This document shows, one piece after another, positions 29,498 through 49,890 of a stretch of 64,000 bases of DNA (positions are counted from its first letter, which is position 1; each line of letters opens with the position of its first letter). The translations under genes and the position numbers were made by a program. This stretch comes from Candidatus Amphrikana amoebophyrae (GTDB taxonomy: Bacteria > Chlamydiota > Chlamydiia > Chlamydiales > JACRBE01): positions 76 to 64,075 of the forward strand of contig JAUHQG010000039.1 in the NCBI GenBank assembly GCA_030408475.1, read 5' to 3'. The notes beneath the pieces are model-generated. The model ran no database searches. It was not told the DNA's origin and was given only the letters and a program-made list of their open reading frames with translations.

Positions 29498-31036
29498 CTA
29501 TTCAATTATTTTTTTCATCATTTTTTTTAGCGTTTTACTCGTCACAATTTCTTCCACTGTAGGGCGCAATCGGTAGGTCCAATTAGTAGGAAGAACCATG
29601 CCAGGTCGATTAATCCTCTCATCATCAGGACATTCCCAAACTAATTTTGGGAAAAGTGCTAAATACTCTTGGAGTAAGTTGATATGAAATCTCGAGTTCG
29701 TATGGTGAGCATCAGTTAATATTTTTTCTCGCATAGTTTTTGTTAGCTTTTTTTTATATGGCATATCAAAAGCTTTGCAAAAAGCTTTTGCTTCATCAGG
29801 AAAATCACGAAACCATTGAGTTAAAGTTTCTGAGTCGTGAGTAGATAGGGTGCAGTAACTTCCCTTTTTGTACTTATCATATGGGATAAATTCGCCTGTT
29901 GTTTTAAATATTTCCCACCGAACAACTATCGTTCGATCAATTCCTAGAGTGTCTAAACTTTTTGATACACTTGCAGGTGTTGGCATCGAACCTAAATCTT
30001 CACCAATGGGGTGCATATGTGTAAATTTTAACAGAGCTTTTAATGAGCAATGGCCCAATTTTGTGAATTTTTTTTCATCGCTTGGAATAAATTCCCCTTT
30101 AATAGCAAGTTGACGAGGAGGTATAGCCCAAATTCGATAAAATCCAATCACATGATCTATTCTAAATATGTCATAAAAATTTTCAGCATATTTTAATCTT
30201 CGATCCCACCAACGATAGTTATCAGCTTTTAACTCTTTCCAATCATAAATAGGGAATCCCCAATATTGTCCATCTTTGTTAAATTCATCAGGTGGTGCAC
30301 CTGCTGCATATTTCATATTGAAAAAGCGGCGATAAAACCATACATCGACACTTTCTGGACTAATTAAAATGGGAATATCACCCATTATCATAACCCCTTT
30401 GGAATGAGCATGCCTTTTAACGATGAGCAGTTGGTTATAGCAAATGTATTGAACAAAGAAATGAAACTCAATTTCATCATCATGCAATTCATAAAGTTCT
30501 TTTACAGTTGTTGGAGATGGGTTTTTAAGTTCATCAGGCCATTTTTTCCAAGAAGATAGATTTTGAGTTTCTTTCAATGTTTTAAATAGAGCGTATCTTT
30601 TAATCCAAGGATACTTGTTTTTATATGCTATGAATGATTCATCACTTTGATATAGCACCTTAGTTTGAGAATAATAGAGTCTTAAAAAGTCCATTTTCAT
30701 TCTTAACACATCGTCGTATTGAACTCGCTGCTCTTTATTATATGGTATAAACTCTGTTAGTTTCTCTTGAAGATTGGGATGATCGGAGAGCTGTTCAAGA
30801 GCGTGTAAAGAGATATATATGGGATGCAATGCAATAGAAGAGAGGGCATTATATGGGCTGGAGTCATAACCAGTGTCGTTGATAGGTAGAAGTTGGATAA
30901 TATCCATATTAATTTCTTTGACCCAATCTATCATGGGGATCAAGTCATAAAATTCACCCACCCCGCAGCTATTTATGGAGCGAAGGCTTGCAAGGGGCAG
31001 GTTAATACCGTTAAATCGATCTTTTTCAAAGTTCAT
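29498..31036 (-). CDS. malQ: 4-alpha-glucanotransferase (amylomaltase, GH77)
   Basis: GH77 motifs are GVGEFYDL, LPINDT, FRIDHVIGF, GEDLG and STHDS. Confidence 0.9.
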   Translation of the reverse strand: MNFEKDRFNGINLPLASLRSINSCGVGEFYDLIPMIDWVKEINMDIIQLLPINDTGYDSSPYNALSSIALHPIYISLHALEQLSDHPNLQEKLTEFIPYNKEQRVQYDDVLRMKMDFLRLYYSQTKVLYQSDESFIAYKNKYPWIKRYALFKTLKETQNLSSWKKWPDELKNPSPTTVKELYELHDDEIEFHFFVQYICYNQLLIVKRHAHSKGVMIMGDIPILISPESVDVWFYRRFFNMKYAAGAPPDEFNKDGQYWGFPIYDWKELKADNYRWWDRRLKYAENFYDIFRIDHVIGFYRIWAIPPRQLAIKGEFIPSDEKKFTKLGHCSLKALLKFTHMHPIGEDLGSMPTPASVSKSLDTLGIDRTIVVRWEIFKTTGEFIPYDKYKKGSYCTLSTHDSETLTQWFRDFPDEAKAFCKAFDMPYKKKLTKTMREKILTDAHHTNSRFHINLLQEYLALFPKLVWECPDDERINRPGMVLPTNWTYRLRPTVEEIVTSKTLKKMMKKIIE

Positions 31037-31503
31037 GTTTTAAGTCCCATTTCTATTGAGTGAGGTGAGTCATCAGTTGGCTCTGCCAAAGAGTCATCGG
31101 GGTGTGTTTTCCCCCCTTTGATTGATTGTCTCCAAAGGTAGGCTCTCTCAGAAAAGCGCTTGAGATATTCGACAAAATCAGTAGGACTATTTATGCTTGC
31201 GAGCAAGATTTTATCGTGCATTACAAGCATATTGATCTTAGGTAAATAGCTAAAAATCCCCACTTGCTTATTGAGGTAGTCATTTGCTCGCAAAATATCA
31301 AGGACAGCTTTTTCTCTAAATTTCCCAGGGGGCAGCTCAATCACTTGACAAGCGATAATTAAAAAAGTATCAGTGGAGTCCATTTCTAATTGTACTTCGA
31401 TAGTTTCGTTGATCTCTATGCGACAAACTCTCATTTCATCTGCATGAAGGGTGGTGTCGAGCTCATCACCGAGTTCTATAAGCATCTCTTCAAATCTGGC
31501 CAT
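31033..31503 (-). CDS. scc1: Type III secretion chaperone (CesT/SycE family, Scc1-like)
   Basis: The 156-aa acidic protein has a CesT-like pattern. It lies immediately downstream of copN and overlaps malQ by 4 nt, as in the chlamydial copN-scc1-malQ arrangement. Confidence 0.65.
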   Translation of the reverse strand: MARFEEMLIELGDELDTTLHADEMRVCRIEINETIEVQLEMDSTDTFLIIACQVIELPPGKFREKAVLDILRANDYLNKQVGIFSYLPKINMLVMHDKILLASINSPTDFVEYLKRFSERAYLWRQSIKGGKTHPDDSLAEPTDDSPHSIEMGLKT

Positions 31504-32681
31504 TAATCGTCATCCTCATCATCATCTTCATCTTCGTCAATCATATCTTCAAGCTCACTTAAAGTGTCTAAAAGAGCAAGCAACATATCATGTCGATGTT
31601 TTTCTGATTTAAATAGTCTTGGAGAAACGGCACGTATAGCATCACGATATTGAGTAAATATGATAATTTGAGCCAATTCTTCATCACTTATACCAAGCAT
31701 CACGCCAAGCTTTAAAATTTTGTCAGCTGAAGGGTATCGTTCCATGAGCATCTTTACAAATTGCTTAGAGAGCAGTTCGAAGGTAAGTCTAGGAGGGAGA
31801 TCGAGATCATTGCGACCAAACATTTGAACAATCATGGCCATTCTGGCGCTAAAAAAACTAAAAACACCTAAAATAGACTGCATAGTTCTAGCGCTGGCAA
31901 ATAGTCGTTGTAAAAGTTGAGGGGGAATGGAAGGCCCTTTAGCTTTCATGTCAGAGCCAAGAGAGTGGAGAATGAATTTGATGACAGTGGACATTTTTTC
32001 GAAGTTAAATTTTTTGGAAAGGTCATCAAAAAGATCGGCTGGCTCTTTAGGGTTTCCAGTTATTTCTCTATACAGATCACGCAATGCGGTAGGAGATCCC
32101 AGCCCTTTAGTTGAGAATTCACGAGCTTCAGTGGACATATTGCGTCCTGCTTTAATTTCTCTTTCATAAAGCGAGTTTAGTTGAGCTCGAGCTTCGTAGA
32201 GTTTTCGACCAATCGTGGAGTTTTGAGGGGTATTGTTGACGAGGTGATCGAGGGCATCATCGGCGAGATATTCATCAGGATAGGCAGATAACACTTTATT
32301 CATAATAGTATCGATATCGTCTTCAGGGTTAATGCTTCCCTTTAACATTTTTAAGACATTATCATTGAGCTCAGGGTGGCCATCGGTGAGAGTTTCAGAG
32401 GACTCAGTAACATCTTCGATGAGCATCATTTCGGGATCCTCTTTTTCCTCAGTTTTCTCTTTTTTGTAGTCCTTTTTGAGCTTTTCTTCGAGCTCTTTGA
32501 ACTTTTTCATCATTAAAGAGGGGGTAAAAGCGTAGGTGTCGACCCATTCAGAGAATTCACTTTTAGCTGCAACTTGTTGGGCAAGAAGAGTTTTGGATGT
32601 TTTTTGAGCATCCTTCATTTGGGCATGTAATTTAGATGCGTCTAAATTAACAGAGGAGATGGGGGCAATTTGATCATCCAT
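31503..32681 (-). CDS. copN: T3SS gatekeeper CopN (SctW/YopN-TyeA family)
   Basis: Several blocks match my recollection of C. trachomatis CopN. ALDHLVNNTPQNS matches ALDYLVQTTPPSQ. LRDLYREITGNP matches LRSLYLEVTGDT. KAKGPSIPPQLLQRL matches KRQGPYVPSAQLQVL. Synteny also supports the call. Confidence 0.8.
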   Translation of the reverse strand: MDDQIAPISSVNLDASKLHAQMKDAQKTSKTLLAQQVAAKSEFSEWVDTYAFTPSLMMKKFKELEEKLKKDYKKEKTEEKEDPEMMLIEDVTESSETLTDGHPELNDNVLKMLKGSINPEDDIDTIMNKVLSAYPDEYLADDALDHLVNNTPQNSTIGRKLYEARAQLNSLYEREIKAGRNMSTEAREFSTKGLGSPTALRDLYREITGNPKEPADLFDDLSKKFNFEKMSTVIKFILHSLGSDMKAKGPSIPPQLLQRLFASARTMQSILGVFSFFSARMAMIVQMFGRNDLDLPPRLTFELLSKQFVKMLMERYPSADKILKLGVMLGISDEELAQIIIFTQYRDAIRAVSPRLFKSEKHRHDMLLALLDTLSELEDMIDEDEDDDEDDD

Positions 32682-32741
32682 ATTCTCACTCTTGCCTTAT
32701 CCTCTATAAAAAGTAAATAGGGAGGTGTAGGAATAAGTCTA

Positions 32742-33932
32742 TTATTTAACAAGACTGATTTTGTTATCTTTTATAACATAGAAATAGTTTATGAAAAATG
32801 CTATATAACTACATAAAATTATTACAGTGGCCATAGGTAAACAATTAAATTTCATTAAATATACACCTACCCACCCCATAAATGCTCCAAATATCATTTT
32901 AGAGAAATACATTAATGAAAAAGCATGATTTATGCTCTGTTTTATATTTTGTATTGCTAGTATTTGACAAAACGAAAGCATAAGTCCTATTCCGAATAGT
33001 AAAATAAACATAGGTAGAATAAAAAGAAATATATTAGGGGCGTAAGACATAGAAAAAATAAACAATAGACTAGAACCTATGAGAGTGATTATGAGGCTAT
33101 AGTGGATAAGAATTTGAGGTGAGGTTTTTTTATTAAAAAATCTACCTAGAAGAGAACCAAGGACAAAACCAATCATTGCCAAAGAGTGAAAGAGCGAAAA
33201 ATTAGTCGTGGTGAGTGAGAAAAAATTGATACATATAAAAGATGTAGAGGATAAATAGGTAAAAAAACTAGCCCATCCTAAAGTAATAATTGAAGTGTAG
33301 ACTCTAAAGTTGTAATCACAGGCAATGTTAAAGTACTCTTTGATATTACTTTGGGTAGAAGATATTTCAGGAGTATGGTTTTGAATACACAAACAAATCA
33401 GAACAAATAATAATAAACAAAATAGCGCTAGAAATAGAAAATTAGCTCTCCAATCAAAATAAGATATAAAAAGACTTCCTAAAGGAGGTGCAATGATTGT
33501 TGTAAGCCCCATTCCTAAAAACATAGCTGATAATAAGTTCGATAACCGATGTGGTTTACTGTATGTTTGTTTTGCAATTACTCGACTAACAATACTACCG
33601 CAACAGCCACCAAAAGATTGCAAAATTCTTCCGATGATAAAAATAGTGAGATTTTGAGAAAAAAAACAAAGTAAAGATGCCATTATATAAAGAGAAAACC
33701 CAATGAGAATTAACTTTTTATTTCCCAATTTTTTTGCTAATGGTGCACAAAGTAACATTGAGAGAGCAAACCCTACAAAATATAAACTCAAGGTGAGCTG
33801 AATTTGTTCAGATCTAGATTCAAATGTCACCATTAGCTTTGGTAAAGCAGATAGGTATAAGTCAGAAGAAAATACAGAAAGACAAACACATAAAATAAGT
33901 ATGAAATCAAGGGTTTTAGTTTTTATACTCAT
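32742..33932 (-). CDS. MFS transporter (Bcr/CflA-like efflux type, 12 TM)
   Basis: The 396-aa protein has about 12 hydrophobic segments. The motif GRILQSFGGCCGSIVSRVI follows TM4, as in drug/metabolite:H+ antiporters. Confidence 0.8.
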   Translation of the reverse strand: MSIKTKTLDFILILCVCLSVFSSDLYLSALPKLMVTFESRSEQIQLTLSLYFVGFALSMLLCAPLAKKLGNKKLILIGFSLYIMASLLCFFSQNLTIFIIGRILQSFGGCCGSIVSRVIAKQTYSKPHRLSNLLSAMFLGMGLTTIIAPPLGSLFISYFDWRANFLFLALFCLLLFVLICLCIQNHTPEISSTQSNIKEYFNIACDYNFRVYTSIITLGWASFFTYLSSTSFICINFFSLTTTNFSLFHSLAMIGFVLGSLLGRFFNKKTSPQILIHYSLIITLIGSSLLFIFSMSYAPNIFLFILPMFILLFGIGLMLSFCQILAIQNIKQSINHAFSLMYFSKMIFGAFMGWVGVYLMKFNCLPMATVIILCSYIAFFINYFYVIKDNKISLVK

Positions 33933-33944
33933 GATTTTAGAAGG

Positions 33945-35291
33945 TTAGTATGCATCTTCTTTTAATATTGAAGAAATTATAGAATCATTGATTTGGCTAA
34001 TTTCAACTTGGGAATTTGATTTAAAGTACTTAAGAAGAATTTGATCTTCAAGTAAAATAAAGCAACAAGGAATTCCTTTTTTGTCTGCATAGCTGAGCTC
34101 TTTTTTCAGTTTGGTATTTTCGCCGGTATACAAATCAACTTTTAGACCGTGTTGTCTCAATTCTTCAGCTAATTTTATCGCTTTTGGGATATCCTCTTTT
34201 TTTTCATAAGCAACCATGCAATTAGCAATGCTTTTGCGTTTTAGTTCTTGATTACTTCTGGTTATCATAATATCAAACAATCTTGTTAGTCCGATCGATG
34301 CGCCAACTCCATTAATATCAAGGCAACTTTGATTGAATTCGCCAATTAAATTAGAATAGCGACCTCCACTTGCAATACTTCCAATAGACTCTTTTCCTAC
34401 TAAGTGAGATTCGAAAACAACTCCAGTATAGTAATTTAATCCCCTAATAATTCGAGGTTTAAATTGAAATAGATCAGGGTTTATTTTTGTTGAAATCAAT
34501 AGGTTATATAAATTTTTTAATTCAGTAACCCCTGCTTGTATAAGAGGGTGATGGTGAGCAAATTTGTTTGAGAATTCTTCAAGAGAACCTTCAAATAAGA
34601 ACGAATCGATTAGATTTTCAATTTGCTTTTTAGTAATCTGATACTCGTCTAATTTTTCTACAATATCTGTGACAATTTCAGAAGCGCTGCATTTATCAAG
34701 CTTATCGATAGAAATACAAACATCAGCAAATTTCTCTTTTGGTATTTCAAAACTATTAATCAATCCTGTAGCAATAGACATATGGTTAATAGAGAGAGTA
34801 AATGCGCCAACATTTAAACGGCTGAGTGTGTTGATAATGCATTTAATACATTCATAGTCGGATAGAATAGACATGTTACGATCTATAATATCGATATCAG
34901 CTTGAATAAACCCTCTAAATCGACCAGCTTGAGCCCTTTCTCCTCTGAACGAAAGTTCAAGATCGGATCTCTTTAATGGGAAGGTAATAGCGCCAACTCT
35001 TTGAGCTACCCATAAGGCAAAAGGAACTGTATGATCATAAGGAAGGCCTAATTTTATACTGCCTGTTCCATCAAATCTAGCAAGAGCATACACTTGATTT
35101 CCAATACCACCTTTCATAAGGTGTTCTTTTTTCTCTACAGGTCTAAGACTAAATCGAGTGAAGCCAAATTCTTCAAAAGTTGTGTTAACTATTGTTTTCC
35201 AGCGATTTATTTCAAAATGCTCTTGCTCACTATAGTCAGTAAACCCAGTAATAGAGGAAGGTTTTGGGAGTGGGTTTTCAGATTTAGTCAT
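33945..35291 (-). CDS. hisS: Histidine--tRNA ligase of archaeal/eukaryal sequence type, with anticodon-binding domain
   Basis: Class II motifs are FRGERAQAGRFRGFIQADIDII (motif 2), RGLNYYTGVVFE and SGGRYSNLIGEF...GVGASIGLTRL (motif 3). LPYDHTVPFALWV resembles LRYDLTVPFARY of eukaryal/archaeal HisRS rather than the bacterial LRPEGT. The C-terminal alpha/beta anticodon-binding domain is present. Confidence 0.8.
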   Translation of the reverse strand: MTKSENPLPKPSSITGFTDYSEQEHFEINRWKTIVNTTFEEFGFTRFSLRPVEKKEHLMKGGIGNQVYALARFDGTGSIKLGLPYDHTVPFALWVAQRVGAITFPLKRSDLELSFRGERAQAGRFRGFIQADIDIIDRNMSILSDYECIKCIINTLSRLNVGAFTLSINHMSIATGLINSFEIPKEKFADVCISIDKLDKCSASEIVTDIVEKLDEYQITKKQIENLIDSFLFEGSLEEFSNKFAHHHPLIQAGVTELKNLYNLLISTKINPDLFQFKPRIIRGLNYYTGVVFESHLVGKESIGSIASGGRYSNLIGEFNQSCLDINGVGASIGLTRLFDIMITRSNQELKRKSIANCMVAYEKKEDIPKAIKLAEELRQHGLKVDLYTGENTKLKKELSYADKKGIPCCFILLEDQILLKYFKSNSQVEISQINDSIISSILKEDAY

Positions 35292-35313
35292 AATATTGCC
35301 TTAAAAATAGAGT

Positions 35314-36933
35314 TCATACAAGTGAATTATATAACGAAATGCCACTAGTTGTATATAGGGATCCAGATTCTAATATTTTAGAATTGATTTCATATTTTTT
35401 AGCAAAATTTTCCTCCGAAGGGAATGGTGCATGACTATGTTGCTCTTGAACGCTTTGAAAAATAATTTCAGAAAGTAAAGAAGAAGGGATTGACTTACCT
35501 TTATTTAAGATTTGCCTTCTTGATAAGGAGTATGCTTGCATTGAAGTCGTTAAATAAATAGTAAGAAGTTGGTTCATGAGATCAATTTGATCTAAAAGTT
35601 TATGAGCAGCAGTAGCGCCATAACTAACTAAATCTTCAGATTCATTCGCACTTGTAATATTATAGGTAGATACTGGCTGTGCCATCATACAAATCTTTTG
35701 TGCTAAAGAATTAGCTGTGTATTGTGGGATCATGTAACCAGATAGTAATCCTTTTTTTTCCTCTTGGTGAATAAGGTAAGTGGGTAAGGTGTTTTTATTT
35801 CTAAATGGGTTTAGCATGTAAGTTAGGTGACGCTCCAATGTCAAAGCAATTTTAGCATTGGCTGCACATATTGTATCAGCTATTGTAGAAAGAATTTCCC
35901 CATGGAAGTTGCCTCCTGAAATGACTACCCAATCTTCATTTTGAAAAGATATTTTTCTTTTATTACTAACATCAGCAGATATTTCATTTTCTAAAAAGAG
36001 TAATGGGTTGTCAGTAATGGCATCTAGTTCAGCATTTACTTTTGCTTTTTGTTCTAAAATGATTTCAATTCGGGGACCAAAAATTTGAGGAAGACAACGA
36101 ACGCAATAATCATCTTGAACTCCTGTATGATTGATAAAAGGAGAGTTTTTAAATTGTCGTGATATTAAATCAGCTACAATTGTTTGCCCCGTTTGTTTAC
36201 GTGCAAGTTGTAAGCAGCTATAAAAAGAAGCGTCGATAGCTCCTATTGAATTTAGGAAAAGGCCAAGAACTGAAAATAAGTTATTTAGTAAATTGATTTG
36301 TCTTTGATATCCAATTGCTATCATTGATGCCATAAAGGCAGTGCCATTAGTCAGAGCTAGCCCTTCTTTGGCTTTTGGTGAAAACGGTTTTATACCAGCT
36401 CTCTGAAGAGCTAATTTGGCAGAAATTATTTCACCATTATATTCAACAGGCACATCATTTCCTTGCATAGCTTGTCCCAGTCTAGCTAAATTAGCTAAGT
36501 CCCCACTAGCTCCAAGTGAACCGGTTTCAGGAATAATAGGTATAACTCTTGCATTAATCATGTCAAGTAAGGTTTGCAAACTAGACGTCTGAAAGCCCGA
36601 ATTACCTTTTGATAGTGAGTTGGCTCTAATTATCATCGCACCCAAAACAACATCAGTTGGAAAAGGTTTTCCTATTCCTGCATCATGACTAGAAATAATA
36701 TTTATAGAGAGTTCTGCTGCTAAATGTGGGGCAACAGCACAATCTCTTAAGTCGGCAAATCCAGTAGTTAATCCATATACTTTAATATTATTATCCAAAA
36801 GGTGTTGGATGAAATATCTAGTTTTATCTAGTCTTTGAACACACTTATCAGATATTTTAATTTTCTCATCAGAATAGACAAGTTTTAGAAAATGTTTAAG
36901 GTCCAAGATATGTTCGTTTCCAAAAGTGGCCAT
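35314..36933 (-). CDS. hutH: MIO-dependent ammonia-lyase/aminomutase family protein, histidine ammonia-lyase-like
   Basis: The MIO triad sits in GSLGASGDL (Ala-Ser-Gly at nt 36502-36510). The substrate-selectivity position reads SSHDAG (Ser-His as in HAL, not FL/HL of PAL/TAL). I chose the start at MATFG (ATG 36933), preceded by AAGGA. The longer ORF overlaps the permease gene. Confidence 0.85.
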   Translation of the reverse strand: MATFGNEHILDLKHFLKLVYSDEKIKISDKCVQRLDKTRYFIQHLLDNNIKVYGLTTGFADLRDCAVAPHLAAELSINIISSHDAGIGKPFPTDVVLGAMIIRANSLSKGNSGFQTSSLQTLLDMINARVIPIIPETGSLGASGDLANLARLGQAMQGNDVPVEYNGEIISAKLALQRAGIKPFSPKAKEGLALTNGTAFMASMIAIGYQRQINLLNNLFSVLGLFLNSIGAIDASFYSCLQLARKQTGQTIVADLISRQFKNSPFINHTGVQDDYCVRCLPQIFGPRIEIILEQKAKVNAELDAITDNPLLFLENEISADVSNKRKISFQNEDWVVISGGNFHGEILSTIADTICAANAKIALTLERHLTYMLNPFRNKNTLPTYLIHQEEKKGLLSGYMIPQYTANSLAQKICMMAQPVSTYNITSANESEDLVSYGATAAHKLLDQIDLMNQLLTIYLTTSMQAYSLSRRQILNKGKSIPSSLLSEIIFQSVQEQHSHAPFPSEENFAKKYEINSKILESGSLYTTSGISLYNSLV

Positions 36934-36947
36934 TAATTTTTTCCTTT

Positions 36948-38171
36948 TTAATGTTTTATTAAATGTATGGTTTCTAAAACTATGCATAAGATAGCCATTA
37001 AACATAGGGAGGCAAGGACTATTTTATTTCGATAAAATTTGTTATCGCATTTTAATTTTAAAAAATAATATCCAGACCAAACGAGCAAAACAGGCAGTAT
37101 ACCATTTAAGTAAGCTTCGCCAAATCCACCAGCGATAGATAAAGCTTTCGAAAAAAGATTGGGGTTAATTAAAAAGCAAATAAAGGTAGGGATAAAAATA
37201 AGGGCAGATCTTAGTTCTTTTGAAATGTTTACGTTCAATATTTTAAATCCATCTTTTAAAAAATCCATCAAAGATAAGCTAACACCAAGTAAAGATGTTA
37301 ATAAAGCAAATAATGAAAAGTAATTAGTAAGGAGTAATAAGATTGGGCTTATATTATTGAATTTTAAAGCTTGCGTAGCAATTTCTCCATTATTACGAGC
37401 TTCTAATAATGACTCAACAGAAGTAGTTTTAATAAAGAAATATTGCCATGACACATATATAACTGTTACTATAATAGTTCCTGTAATAATCGAGAATCTC
37501 AAAGATTTTTTGTCTTTATCTAGGTACTCAACTAACGAAGGGATAACATTGTGAAAACCAAAGGCCCCAAATAAAATAGGAACAGCAAATGCGGCTGTTT
37601 TAAAGCTAGATGAGTGAAGTTGTTTCATGGGAATTGAATTTAATCCAAAGTAGATGACAAAAACAAATGTAACAGCCATTGCAATGGACAAAACTGCATT
37701 TACTCGGCTGATGGATTCAGCTCCTTTTGAAACAAGAATCCCAATGATTATTACAAAAATAAGTGAAGTGAAAAATGAGTTAATATCTATTTGCAGAAAT
37801 TCGAAAAAATGGGTTAGAAAGGGTATGCCTGCAGAAATATAGGCGATCACAAGACAGTAATATAAAAATATGAACATAAAACCTGAAAAGTAACAAGTTT
37901 TTCGGCCTATTAATTTTTCAGTGAGAGATAAAATATTAGATCCTCTGGGCATCCATAAACAAGCTTCTAGAAAAAGGAGACCAGATATCATCATAAAAAT
38001 AGCTACTGCAATAGTTATAAGACATGCTGGATAAAAACCAGATTCTCCTGTTACAAGTGGGATGCCTAGCATTCCAGCACCTACAGAAGTTCCAACTATC
38101 ATGAGTACACTCGCTCCTACTCTAAACCATTGGGATCGTATTGCTAAGGGGTAGGTTTTAGTAGAATTCAT
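36948..38171 (-). CDS. Hydroxy/aromatic amino acid permease (HAAAP; TyrP/Mtr/TnaB-like)
   Basis: The protein has 11-12 TM segments. The N-terminal signature is MIVGTSVGAGMLGIPLVTGESGF. Confidence 0.8.
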   Translation of the reverse strand: MNSTKTYPLAIRSQWFRVGASVLMIVGTSVGAGMLGIPLVTGESGFYPACLITIAVAIFMMISGLLFLEACLWMPRGSNILSLTEKLIGRKTCYFSGFMFIFLYYCLVIAYISAGIPFLTHFFEFLQIDINSFFTSLIFVIIIGILVSKGAESISRVNAVLSIAMAVTFVFVIYFGLNSIPMKQLHSSSFKTAAFAVPILFGAFGFHNVIPSLVEYLDKDKKSLRFSIITGTIIVTVIYVSWQYFFIKTTSVESLLEARNNGEIATQALKFNNISPILLLLTNYFSLFALLTSLLGVSLSLMDFLKDGFKILNVNISKELRSALIFIPTFICFLINPNLFSKALSIAGGFGEAYLNGILPVLLVWSGYYFLKLKCDNKFYRNKIVLASLCLMAILCIVLETIHLIKH

Positions 38172-38232
38172 TTAAACTTCCTTGATTTTTAGTAATAACG
38201 GGCTTCATGAAAGTATAGATGGTTATAGAAGC

Positions 38233-38261
38233 TTGACAGAATAATATTTTAGATGTATGTT
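38233..38261 (+). promoter_or_regulatory. Candidate sigma-66/70-type promoter for the 325-aa ORF + desulfurase pair
   Basis: TTGACA (38233-38238) is followed by a 17-nt spacer and TATGTT (38256-38261), about 110 nt upstream of the ATG at 38372. This is a pattern match only. Confidence 0.25.
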
Positions 38262-38371
38262 TTTTTGCTTTAAAATATTAGATGATGTTCTTGAATATAG
38301 TCTAGTAAAAAGATAGTTTGTCTTGTTTAAGTTAAAAAATCCATTCTGAAATAGTAACTTTTCAAAGGTGT

Positions 38372-46983: not shown

Positions 46984-48396
46984 ATGGAGAGAAGTATGGA
47001 TGGAGTAAGGCCTAGATCTTCTGCGCTTGCTGCTGTAGCACCTCGTAGAGTAGCAAGCCGAAGTATATTGCCTGAAGAGCTTTTATTAAAGATTTTGGCT
47101 TTTGCTGCAGATAGTCAAAGCTTAACAGCTATTTGCGGAGTGTCGCGATATTTTTATCAATTAGCTAAATTAGACAAGTTTTGGAAAGTGGCCATTTCTT
47201 CTATTTATTTTACTGCGGTCAGTAAGAATCATAGAGATGCTTATATTGTTTGGAAAAAAAGTTTATTGAAAAGATCCATGACAGTAGAACCTGTGGCAGA
47301 ATTAAGAAGGCCATTGTTTTCACCAGTAGAGCAGAGGAGACCAGGGGCAGTAACAGTTAGTGTTAATAGACCGCTTGTCCGGCTGGAATCTTACTATGAT
47401 TTGTCTGTATGTAATGACCTAGCCCTTTGCATTATTTCCCCTCATAAACGATTTAAAGGGTGTAGTTTAGCCCATTTAGGTAAAGAAGGTAAGCTAGATC
47501 GCATGGATGATTTATCTTCACATAAGCATATACAGCTCACTGAATCGGGAAAATGGCTTACTGAGCATGAGCGGAAAGTTAAAGTGTATGACTTATCCTA
47601 TGGAGATTTGGATCATTTCGTTCAATACGATTTAGAGGCAGGAAAATATTTCATAAATGGTCTTGGCCAACTTTTACTTTTAAGAGGTCGGTCTATTTGT
47701 TGCTTTACTTCAGGGCAAACGCAATCGCTCTCTTTGTTATATAAAGATATAAAAGTAATACCAACAGAAGATTCTTTTTTTCTATTTGGTGTAACAAGCG
47801 ATAAAAGTTGTTATTTGTTATCTCGATATGTTTCAGAAGAGAGTAAAGTTGTAATTGTGGCAAGCTTTCCCATTCCAAATTCAAGAGGGCACTATTTAAC
47901 AACATATAAGGGTAATATTTTATGGCTAGCAAATTCTAACATGAGCGAAAACAGCCTGTTTTCGTTAGATTTAGCTAAGATGTTAAAGCTAAAGCATAAC
48001 CTGATTCTAAATAGAGGGTTACGAGCAGAGTTAGATGGTTGTCAAATAACTAATATGAAATTTGACGGCAAGCATTTATCTTGTATTGCAGCGCATATGA
48101 GATTAAGATTAGCCTATACTATTTTAATTGATTATAAGAGTGGGTCAATGCAATTTGATCGTCATGTTTTAAAGACTCCATATCCTGAGCCTTTATTGCC
48201 ATGTGTTATTGCAGGCACAAAAGTGGTTTTAACCCACTTAAATAGAGTAATCGTTTTATCAGATATAACAGAGAAAGCAGATCTCTCGGTCAACTATCAT
48301 TTTGACTATGGAATGCAAGCTATTCAAGTGGTTAAAAATGTATTAGTGGCTGTTGATACTGCAGGTCGACTTCGTATTCATAGACTAGGAAGCTGA
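46984..48396 (+). CDS. F-box domain protein (eukaryote-like), C-terminal region possibly beta-propeller-like
   Basis: Residues ~28-68 (nt 47065-47187) read ILPEELLLKILAFAADSQSLTAICGVSRYFYQLAKLDKFW. This closely fits the F-box consensus LPdELLlkIl..L....L..l..VsK.w..l......W. Confidence 0.65.
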   Translation: MERSMDGVRPRSSALAAVAPRRVASRSILPEELLLKILAFAADSQSLTAICGVSRYFYQLAKLDKFWKVAISSIYFTAVSKNHRDAYIVWKKSLLKRSMTVEPVAELRRPLFSPVEQRRPGAVTVSVNRPLVRLESYYDLSVCNDLALCIISPHKRFKGCSLAHLGKEGKLDRMDDLSSHKHIQLTESGKWLTEHERKVKVYDLSYGDLDHFVQYDLEAGKYFINGLGQLLLLRGRSICCFTSGQTQSLSLLYKDIKVIPTEDSFFLFGVTSDKSCYLLSRYVSEESKVVIVASFPIPNSRGHYLTTYKGNILWLANSNMSENSLFSLDLAKMLKLKHNLILNRGLRAELDGCQITNMKFDGKHLSCIAAHMRLRLAYTILIDYKSGSMQFDRHVLKTPYPEPLLPCVIAGTKVVLTHLNRVIVLSDITEKADLSVNYHFDYGMQAIQVVKNVLVAVDTAGRLRIHRLGS

Positions 48397-48627: not shown

Positions 48628-49890
48628 ATGGCGTTTTTTAATGCAGAATTATCTACAAGGCAAAAAGCTTCAATTTGGCGATCTGAAGGGCCAAAAACAA
48701 GTCCAAAAGCGGCTAAGTTACAACATTTATTTGATGAAAATAAAGTCGTTGAATATGAAACACTTAGAGGTGATTTTGAGAGCAGAGGATCGAAATTTCG
48801 CTTAACAAAGGGAAAAATCTTTCAAATATTTCCATCTGAAGAAACCATGAATGTGCCTTTGAAGTTTCAAGTGAAGGGTGGATGTATGACTTGGTACATT
48901 GTAGCTCCCATGGATGAAACTCATCAATCATTTAGAGATGAGGTGTATCAAGCAGCAGCCTTAGGCCATCTTACCGTAAAAAATCATTGTGAAAAGTATT
49001 GGAGAGGCACCAATTCATTGCATGTAAAAAAAATGCATACAGATGAAAGTGAATCAATGTTGAATCATAATCACTATAGGGTTAGAGGAGATAGAGATGT
49101 TGGGCCAGAAGATGTACAAGAGCATTTATTTGGTTTTGTTAAAGCTCAATTAGATATGGGCCTTATCGATAGAAATGGTGAACCAAAGTATTTAGGTTTT
49201 AAAGAGGCTAAAGCTATTCTTCATGACTATAAAGTAAGATGGATAAAAGATACTCATGAAGGAGCAGCTACAGAAGTTATTATAGATGGTGAAGTTGTCG
49301 AATTGCCAGATAGAGAACATTCAATTATTTCAGAGTATAAAGCATCTCCCAAACAGAAACTTACTTTAGAAGATAGAGTAGAATGGGAAGAGAATAAGCA
49401 TCTAGAAAAGCCCTGTATTACTATTGGGGATTCTACAACATTAGATGAAAAACGTGTAGCCATTAAAGCAGGTATGCGTGGACTTGGATCACATTTAGCT
49501 CAAACGAGGCAAGTGAAATGGTCAGTTCATAGAAGTATAAATATCGTAGTTAAAAGTGATGATGTGGTTAAGAAAACCGAATTGGTAGCTAGTAGAATAT
49601 TTGATTCAACTTATTCTCAAGGAGACGGAACTGCTGATATGCTTAATGCTGATTTAGATCTAGAAGAAGAAAATTCTAGACTAGGAGCAGCAGCAGGAGG
49701 TGCAGGAGCAGGAGCAGGAGCAGGTTCAAACAGATTCAGTCCAGAAAGTAGACTAAGTAGTACAAGTCCAGAAAGTAGGCTAAGTAGTGCAAGTCCAGAA
49801 AGTAGGCTAAGTGTAGCAAGACCAGAAAAAGTAAAACTTAGTGGAGATGATTATAGTGTAGAAGAAAGTGTTATGAATGCTTCAACTTAA
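48628..49890 (+). CDS. Hypothetical protein with C-terminal Gly/Ala run and three 9-aa SPESRLS(S/V)x repeats
   Basis: The 420-aa ORF has an SD-like gaggggg upstream. No family recognised for the N-terminal ~330 aa. The C-terminus is low complexity. Confidence 0.5.
   Translation: MAFFNAELSTRQKASIWRSEGPKTSPKAAKLQHLFDENKVVEYETLRGDFESRGSKFRLTKGKIFQIFPSEETMNVPLKFQVKGGCMTWYIVAPMDETHQSFRDEVYQAAALGHLTVKNHCEKYWRGTNSLHVKKMHTDESESMLNHNHYRVRGDRDVGPEDVQEHLFGFVKAQLDMGLIDRNGEPKYLGFKEAKAILHDYKVRWIKDTHEGAATEVIIDGEVVELPDREHSIISEYKASPKQKLTLEDRVEWEENKHLEKPCITIGDSTTLDEKRVAIKAGMRGLGSHLAQTRQVKWSVHRSINIVVKSDDVVKKTELVASRIFDSTYSQGDGTADMLNADLDLEEENSRLGAAAGGAGAGAGAGSNRFSPESRLSSTSPESRLSSASPESRLSVARPEKVKLSGDDYSVEESVMNAST
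49738..49818 (+). repeat. 3 x 27-bp in-frame tandem repeat
   Basis: The units are agtccagaaagtagactaagtagtaca, agtccagaaagtaggctaagtagtgca and agtccagaaagtaggctaagtgtagca. They are preceded by a (GCAGGA)n-like Gly/Ala-coding run at about 49686-49724. Confidence 0.9.

Follow-up and report, generated by a model that had tools for sequence, protein, structure and literature searches.

A conserved histidine-centred gene module between copN and sctV in Candidatus Amphrikana amoebophyrae

Why would a bacterium keep a gene for a histidyl-tRNA synthetase (HisRS) directly beside a gene for an enzyme predicted to break histidine down? The question is raised by four minus-strand genes at 32742-38171 of the 64-kb stretch of the Candidatus Amphrikana amoebophyrae contig JAUHQG010000039.1 analysed here (the window), which encode a permease, a histidine ammonia-lyase (HAL)-like enzyme, a HisRS and a transporter of the major facilitator superfamily (MFS). 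We give a probability of about one half to the reading that this block is a histidine-handling operon around the organism's working, probably only, HisRS. The conserved histidine-centred module to which it belongs is undescribed as far as the searched literature shows: searches on pairs of hisS and hutH, on HisRS paralogues and on chlamydial HAL returned nothing relevant, GCN2 dominating the results. The four genes, and the region upstream of them, are as follows.

36948..38171, minus strand: HAAAP (TyrP/Mtr-family) permease, 407 aa, first gene of the block (PF03222, TIGR00837)
35314..36933, minus strand: HAL-like enzyme of the 4-methylideneimidazole-5-one (MIO) type, 539 aa (PF00221, TIGR01225)
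33945..35291, minus strand: class IIa HisRS, eukaryal/archaeal-like, 448 aa (PF13393 and PF03129, TIGR00442)
32742..33932, minus strand: Bcr/CflA-type MFS transporter, 396 aa (PF07690, TIGR00710)
38172..38371, no strand: divergent intergenic region of 200 nt between the permease gene and the gene for an orphan protein, with candidate promoters for both units

The list of open reading frames (ORFs) and the sequence agree on four consecutive genes with gaps of 14 nt (permease/HAL), 22 nt (HAL/HisRS) and 12 nt (HisRS/MFS), and on copN 60 nt downstream of the MFS gene, and Pfam and NCBIfam matches uphold all four families, that of the permease among them; on both points the initial annotation stands. 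The start of the HAL-like gene, an ATG at 36933, is backed by homologues and by the database gene call, and an alternative longer ORF from 37005 would overlap the permease gene. Profile matches were judged throughout against curated Pfam and NCBIfam (TIGR) cut-offs, and three of the block proteins lie under the curated equivalog or subfamily values, at 253 bits against 286.75 for hisS, 359 against 539 for hutH and 183 against 200.9 for Bcr/CflA. Consensus scans of the coding strand showed nothing like a terminator hairpin where the four genes meet, and no Rfam family, T-box, riboswitch or his leader was found upstream of or inside the block. In and near the 200-nt divergent region, which probably holds the promoters of the permease-led unit and of the orphan unit, minus-strand sigma-70-like matches lie at 38378-38351 (TTGACA-16-TACTAT), 38274-38246 and 38239-38212. 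We infer that the four genes are co-transcribed.

Recurrence of the gene set

Might these genes be mere neighbours, their tight packing a trait of a compact genome? Chlamydial genomes are gene-dense, and promoter-like matches are no commoner in a consensus scan of the intergenic region than in shuffled sequence, as this explanation would have it. Comparative data have effectively refuted it already, and we regard it as extremely unlikely. One genome of each GTDB species was scanned with patterns of the HisRS lineage, which gave 41 loci. Of 32 distinct loci of the lineage, 13, from at least two phyla, have a gene of the same HAL clade no more than 10 kb from the HisRS. About 1% would be expected if both were single-copy genes, unlinked in a genome of 2 Mb, so that the clustering is far beyond chance. 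The pair, together with transporters, recurs across many uncultured Chlamydiota and some Verrucomicrobiota, and the inter-locus distances of HAL and HisRS correlate (Mantel p = 0.0005), which fits joint inheritance.

Conservation of the whole block in other Chlamydiae, a check proposed with the initial annotation, was found in two chlamydial metagenome-assembled genomes (MAGs), at the loci L009 (Chlamydiae bacterium CG10_35_9) and L010 (JASFVE01). Both carry permease, HAL, HisRS and MFS genes, followed by convergent genes for a NifS-like protein and the orphan protein, and what they have in common with the 64-kb window is exactly these six genes and no others. The conserved unit is therefore six genes, with copN as an incidental neighbour. 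In the window the two additional genes lie divergently upstream of the permease gene.

38372..39349, plus strand: orphan protein, 325 aa, with no Pfam, NCBIfam or PDB sequence match
39336..40493, plus strand: NifS/IscS-like class V cysteine desulfurase, 385 aa (PF00266, TIGR03402), overlapping the orphan gene by 14 nt

All neighbouring ORFs of the related loci were clustered to compare their transporters. The window permease matches PF03222 Trp_Tyr_perm over its full length (residues 20-397, 265.9 bits, cut-off 22) and TIGR00837 araaP at 245 bits against a cut-off of 350; it falls short of the equivalog cut-offs for TyrP, Mtr and TnaB as well, and histidine is its proposed substrate. Orthologues at 44-46% identity adjoin the HAL/HisRS pair in L007, L009 and L010. 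The MFS protein scores 130 bits with PF07690 MFS_1 (cut-off 33.4), and of 43 MFS models Bcr/CflA fits it best, over the full length at 183.4 bits; its orthologues (31-37% identity) come after HisRS or HAL in L001, L006, L009, L010, L030 and L125. EamA transporters fill the MFS role in L002, L023, L027, L032 and L036, and the loci of one HisRS clade (clade A) carry an EamA gene as well as an SBP_bac_3/BPD_transp_1/ABC_tran set, a polar-amino-acid ABC importer, which lies directly upstream of HisRS, with HAL adjacent. Because relatives swap the HAAAP permease and the MFS protein for an ABC importer and EamA, the logic of importer, HAL, HisRS and exporter is kept with non-homologous transporters. 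This replacement is the strongest evidence that the genes of the block act jointly on one substrate, and it speaks against chance adjacency.

Is the pairing of synthetase and lyase peculiar to this lineage? A metagenome scan with the HAL-clade alignment, whose patterns are universal, gave only canonical HALs at 30-37% identity, and these 80 loci were reused as a control set. In five of them a bona fide hisS (391-396 bits) lies near a bona fide hutH (608-618 bits) in the same orientation, directly adjacent in four, and a sixth, weaker HisRS-like match was also found near a canonical HAL. The five pairs, from several unrelated lineages of free-living bacteria, span L100 5948-8834, L120 6867-9900, L101 7611-11470, L105 5748-8213 and L049 1170-7560. 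Like them, the block has a HisRS of the same broad type beside a co-oriented HAL; unlike it, they pass the hisS and hutH cut-offs, sit among housekeeping genes and carry no transporters. Around the two pairs whose flanks were scanned, L100 and L120, the neighbours are housekeeping genes such as pyrD and ppk2, with no hutU or hutI adjacent. The occurrence of such pairs among housekeeping genes implies that a synthetase next to a lyase for the same amino acid need not be a paralogue. No paper on the hisS-hutH pairing was found, and it seems to be undescribed. Among plasmids no close relative of the HisRS or the HAL was found, the best identities being 31-36%.

The synthetase and its neighbours

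The HisRS of the block keeps all of its catalytic motifs. Its motif 2 (FRGERAQAGRFRGFIQADID), HisA (RGLNYYTG), HisB (GGRY) and motif 3 (GVGASIGLTR) are intact and align with bona fide hisS and with HisRS of the PDB, and the residues for the alpha-amino group (Asp and Thr of LPYDHT and the motif 2 Gln) are unchanged. An anticodon-binding domain is present at residues 367-413 (PF03129 HGTP_anticodon, 31.3 bits, cut-off 21), and every member of the lineage keeps both this domain and the catalytic motifs. Full-length PDB matches are to the enzyme of Nostoc (3net, 196 bits), to human cytoplasmic HisRS (151 bits) and also to that of Elizabethkingia, and the match to E. coli-type HisRS is confined to the C-terminal part at 30-45 bits, so that the label archaeal/eukaryal-type given to it at first was a fair one. 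The nearest database relative shares 46% identity.

Members of this HisRS lineage (33-47% identity) come from uncultured Chlamydiota, Verrucomicrobiota, Phycisphaerae, Mariniblastus, TM6/Babeliales, Elusimicrobia, Sericytochromatia and Saprospiraceae, thus taking in Planctomycetota and the small-genome TM6 bacteria; no cultured Chlamydiae were found with the lineage-specific patterns or among the best 120 HisRS protein matches. Across the lineage TIGR00442 scores range over 250-288 bits, with 263-267 in TM6/Babeliales and 288 in one Phycisphaerae member. Because TM6/Babeliales score alike, the sub-cut-off score of the window HisRS is a trait of the lineage and not the mark of a defunct paralogue. 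In the lineage tree clade A has 96% bootstrap support, and the window HisRS falls outside it, its placement having <25% support.

The orphan and NifS-like genes also bear on where this HisRS belongs. The orphan family is rare, with five homologues in a search of 5.8 billion proteins and 45 representatives among 1.84 billion. Its invariant residues are D20, G22, H23, C71-F72-S73-D74, C227-P228 and Y248-S249-R250, two invariant cysteines among them, and an AlphaFold2 model (pLDDT 75.7) suggests a Rossmann/HUP-like fold with the invariant residues at strand ends. Fold matches, to cyclodipeptide synthases, CysRS and other class I synthetases, USP and MnmA, are weak and non-significant (E >= 0.014, TM <= 0.37). 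The NifS-like protein matches PF00266 at 179 bits and TIGR03402 NifS at 249 bits against a cut-off of 531, and its translation shows the pyridoxal phosphate (PLP)-lysine motif SGQK and the catalytic-cysteine loop SGKSACSS. We set aside the idea that the orphan protein is the core NifU partner of chlamydiae, given that it has no NifU domain and that its family numbers only about 45 representatives.

The NifS-like gene always follows the orphan gene with a small overlap, its orthologues (37-48% identity) being paired in this way in L009, L010, L128, L129 and L130, and the pair lies beside HisRS in five of the six contexts (the window, L009, L010, L128 and L129). The pairs for which we give coordinates are at window 38372-40493, L128 9928-12153, L129 2370-4586, L130 6672-9426 and L009 6607-8779. 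In L128 and L129 the orphan gene stands directly after a tRNA-His(GTG) gene, and beyond the NifS-like gene a bona fide hisS (342-349 bits) faces the pair in convergent orientation; in L130 the orphan gene follows a YhhQ-like Vut_1 transporter gene. No tRNA-His gene lies anywhere in the window, nor does a remnant of one adjoin the orphan gene. Where the pair converges on a bona fide hisS in L128 and L129, it converges on the HAL-linked HisRS in L009 and L010, so that the block HisRS takes the hisS position. The pair is part of the same mobile segment as the block, and it appears tied to tRNA-His and HisRS, not to HAL. The orphan protein could be a tRNA-His-related sulfur-transfer enzyme, and its partnership with the desulfurase around HisRS appears to be undescribed.

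From these features of its sequence and context, the block HisRS is most likely the organism's working HisRS and, judging from this one contig, probably its only one. A number of observations weigh against this and against the operon reading built on it. The farmington bin.36 MAG has two copies of the lineage, one at L030, HAL-linked and within clade A, and one at L011 that stands alone. L028 (7897-12917) contains a tandem pair of full-length HisRS plus a 277-aa fragment; L030 (9959-15054) contains a 207-aa HisRS fragment and a 563-aa protein that keeps the anticodon-binding domain only; L007 (6662-7642) carries a 326-aa HisRS relative; and L125 (6548-8881) encodes a 777-aa HisRS whose 320-residue N-terminal extension has no assignment, beside a racemase-like gene. 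An ordinary housekeeping gene is seldom multiplied in this way. The HisRS also diverges faster than the HAL (p-distance 0.62 vs 0.45); other proteins of the contig, GlyRS, IF-2, S1 and GlgA, reach their cut-offs, and it does not reach that of hisS; and two of the three HAL-anchored look-ups have no HisRS nearby. A second hisS may lie elsewhere in the genome, of which the window represents one contig. The directions and substrates of the permease and the MFS protein are putative, and it would be counter-intuitive, were histidine limiting, to express a catabolic lyase for it along with the enzyme that loads it onto tRNA.

Several of these observations would suit another reading, in which the HisRS would serve a specialised pathway, either as a second, dedicated synthetase or as a HisZ-like sensor of histidine or tRNA-His. 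It might provide His-tRNA-His for some undescribed enzyme, perhaps the HUP-fold orphan with its desulfurase, or confer resistance to a histidine analogue that the neighbouring enzymes make, with the MFS protein exporting the product. The two copies in one MAG (L011 and L030), the well-supported, HAL-linked clade A and the duplicated, fragmented or extended genes of L007, L028, L030 and L125 speak for such a role, although the window HisRS itself lies outside clade A. The orphan's fold matches include tRNA-using enzymes (cyclodipeptide synthases and class I synthetases), but none is significant, and genes of the NRPS, PKS, ATP-grasp or recognised CDPS kind are missing from the window. The absence of cultured Chlamydiae from the lineage-pattern loci and from the best protein matches counts in favour of this reading, but the lineage takes in the HisRS of small-genome TM6 bacteria. 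The fully canonical active site, with no substitution hinting at altered binding of a substrate or inhibitor, and the hisS position relative to the orphan/NifS pair both argue against it, and we regard a dedicated second synthetase as somewhat unlikely.

The self-resistance form of this idea had been put forward in the initial annotation, which saw an aminoacyl-tRNA synthetase paralogue in a natural-product or self-resistance cassette. Antibiotic clusters do carry resistant synthetases, such as IleRS with mupirocin, TrpRS with indolmycin, ThrRS with borrelidin and SerRS with albomycin, and in the block, too, a divergent synthetase has a modifying enzyme and an efflux pump as neighbours. Unlike them, it has no core biosynthetic genes, its neighbours being transporters, HAL, desulfurase and orphan, and no gene implies a HisRS-targeting product. 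With a canonical, unaltered HisRS site, a borderline hisS score shared by the whole lineage, and hisS standing beside hutH elsewhere, the cassette was rejected.

A broader proposal would join all six genes in one undescribed tRNA-His-centred pathway, in which the HisRS would make His-tRNA-His or sense tRNA-His, the orphan and desulfurase would thiolate tRNA-His or form a sulfur-containing derivative of histidine, and the HAL-like enzyme and MFS protein would process the product and export it into the host. We think this quite unlikely; that the HisRS and the orphan/NifS pair together mark something more unusual than histidine supply we rate as somewhat to very unlikely.

Members of this HisRS lineage also have another pair of neighbours. 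Beside HisRS in six loci, spread over four phyla, a gene for a HisZ-like protein, which has the HisRS catalytic domain without the anticodon-binding domain, overlaps or adjoins one for a histidinol-dehydrogenase-like (HisD-like) protein (L001 10758-13032, L002 2970-5205, L007 7764-9922, L008 12039-14728, L016 11280-13537 and L029 11305-13484). The hosts are chlamydia-like contigs, Mariniblastus, Sericytochromatia and Saprospiraceae, and the L002 pair lies directly beside an EamA exporter gene. The HisZ-like proteins score 80-106 bits against a hisZ cut-off of 272 and retain the arginines of motif 2, motif 3 and HisA, with GGGDF in place of GGRY; the HisD-like proteins score 102-158 bits against a hisD cut-off of 244. 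The pair, whose divergence could likewise be taken to favour a specialised role for the neighbouring HisRS, could conceivably activate histidine and then reduce it towards histidinal or histidinol. This partnership, too, appears to be undescribed.

The lyase and its chemistry

What does the HAL-like enzyme do? It matches PF00221 Lyase_aromatic at 399 bits and TIGR01225 hutH below its cut-off, as given above. The MIO triad A142-S143-G144, in the segment GSLGASGDLA, is invariant across 21 members of its clade, and the selectivity pair Ser82-His83 is present, as the initial annotation had noted. In an alignment with Pseudomonas putida HAL, the window residues Y53, H83, N196, Q273, Y276, R279, F343 and E433 are identical to Y53, H83, N195, Q277, Y280, R283, F329 and E414. 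All members of the clade depart from HutH in having TGFADLR in place of TGFG and an insertion of about 17 residues (EIS.DV...W) ahead of SGGNFHGE. With more than 120 database relatives at >=47% identity, nearly all of the named ones Chlamydiota, the enzyme is, by sequence, a member of a distinct MIO clade centred on that phylum.

The block is like a hut system (HutH, HutU, HutI, HutG/F, HutT and HutC/HutP) in having an MIO HAL with the HutH residues beside an amino-acid importer. It is unlike one in that its lyase belongs to a separate clade below the cut-off, that hutU, hutI, hutG and hut regulators are absent from the 64-kb window, and that it adds a tRNA synthetase and an efflux-type pump. 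Neither hutU nor hutI was found among the scanned ORFs of the window or beside HAL-clade genes in L125-L127. The earlier view that this is no ordinary hut operon holds, and urocanate would be an end product, not an intermediate, given the lack of hutU and hutI.

Could the enzyme instead be a histidine 2,3-aminomutase, or a lyase for a modified histidine, with the HisRS handling its product? The precedent is EpmA/EpmB, in which a LysRS paralogue and a lysine 2,3-aminomutase beta-lysylate EF-P, and the block likewise pairs a class II synthetase relative with an enzyme of a family that includes amino-acid aminomutases. The departures of the clade, among them an insertion near the SGGNFH active-site segment, and the shortfall of its hutH score would be compatible with altered chemistry, and aminomutase models do match at 198-234 bits, but HAL models match best by far and the HAL substrate residues are kept, including His83 and the equivalent of Glu414. 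Lyases and mutases are inseparable by sequence alone; the conserved HAL residues argue for lyase chemistry on histidine. The analogy itself fails on the synthetase, for EpmA has no anticodon-binding domain and the block HisRS has one, with its alpha-amino-binding residues unchanged; moreover, EpmB is a radical-SAM enzyme and the block enzyme an MIO one. The genes that adjoin the HAL in some relatives, methyltransferases and racemase-like genes, can be read in favour of an aminomutase or a modified-histidine lyase. On balance we hold either to be very unlikely. An ergothionase was also rejected: ergothionase functions without MIO, which the block enzyme has, and the match to PDB 6s7j is weak (101 bits vs 216 for HAL).

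Two neighbourhoods of the HAL clade deserve mention in their own right. At L127 9001-17069 a clade member without a nearby HisRS is followed by genes for an S-adenosylmethionine (SAM)-dependent methyltransferase, two MFS transporters, a second methyltransferase and a PLP-dependent aminotransferase/decarboxylase-like protein, and adjoins RHS-repeat proteins and a transposase. An Asp/Glu/hydantoin-racemase-like gene, absent from the window, lies beside the HAL/HisRS pair in four loci (L007 5979-6647, L027 13451-14099, L030 12018-13376 and L125 5722-6522).

The chlamydial setting and a route for histidine

The surroundings of the block are those of a chlamydial type III secretion system (T3SS) locus, with the gene order malQ, scc chaperone, copN and then sctV and sctU (31033-44243).

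31503..32681, minus strand: copN (SctW gatekeeper), matching PF07201 HrpJ, PF22342 T3SS_CopN_3rd and TIGR02568
40975..43095, minus strand: sctV (FHIPEP; PF00771, 738 bits), far border of the six-gene insert of about 8.2 kb
43110-44243: sctU, after sctV

Some 8.2 kb with six genes, the four-gene block and the divergent orphan/NifS pair, thus separate copN from sctV. In Chlamydia trachomatis copN (CT089) abuts cdsV. There Scc1 is Ct088 and CdsV is Ct090 (PMC2734247). The insert has a G+C content of 0.33, against 0.36-0.38 in its flanks and about 36% in the contig. No related locus has a copN homologue or T3SS genes nearby. The suggestion of a noteworthy tie between a metabolic operon and the T3SS gatekeeper is therefore dropped, along with any functional link of the block to copN or the T3SS: the linkage is not conserved, and the block is an insert between copN and sctV.

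Elsewhere in the window are an F-box-like protein, typical of amoeba symbionts (46984-48396), and a fused alpha-beta glycyl-tRNA synthetase of 1006 aa (1464-4484); together with the G+C content and the T3SS gene order, these point in our reading to an environmental chlamydia. Pfam gave no match for five large ORFs of 380-562 aa (44490-46904, 48628-49890, 60026-61714 and 123-1448), nor did NCBIfam for the 562-aa one at 60026-61714, the only one of the five so scanned. These ORFs may encode effectors close to the T3SS genes or proteins specific to the lineage.

How, then, would a histidine-handling operon answer the question with which we began? In the route that we propose, the HAAAP permease would import host-derived histidine, the HisRS would use it to charge tRNA-His, the clade-specific HAL would deaminate the surplus to urocanate and ammonium, and the MFS protein would export either urocanate, which without hutU and hutI is a dead end, or perhaps histidine. 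A shared transcript begun ahead of the permease gene would hold uptake, use and disposal in a fixed ratio. There is a conceptual likeness to AzlCD of Bacillus subtilis, whose export of histidine protects from histidine toxicity (bioRxiv 10.1101/2022.07.07.499250), in that the block may likewise provide an outlet for excess intracellular histidine; unlike the block, AzlCD involves neither lyase nor synthetase, and its transporter family is unrelated. The physiological purpose could be to avoid histidine toxicity, to make ammonium or to release urocanate to the host. The initial annotation had offered such a module for importing, charging, deaminating and exporting host histidine as its alternative, and the comparative data favour that reading. 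The block's most likely role is ordinary in kind, namely histidine uptake, use and disposal.

The analysis defines a distinct MIO clade and a distinct HisRS lineage, both left unnamed by current annotation pipelines, and exposes two apparently undescribed partnerships of HisRS, one with the orphan protein and desulfurase next to tRNA-His, the other with the HisZ-like/HisD-like pair. If the proposed route is true, obligate intracellular scavengers of amino acids would balance an imported amino acid between translation and disposal by means of one hard-wired transcript for importer, synthetase, lyase and exporter, and chlamydiae of this kind would release urocanate and ammonium into their host.

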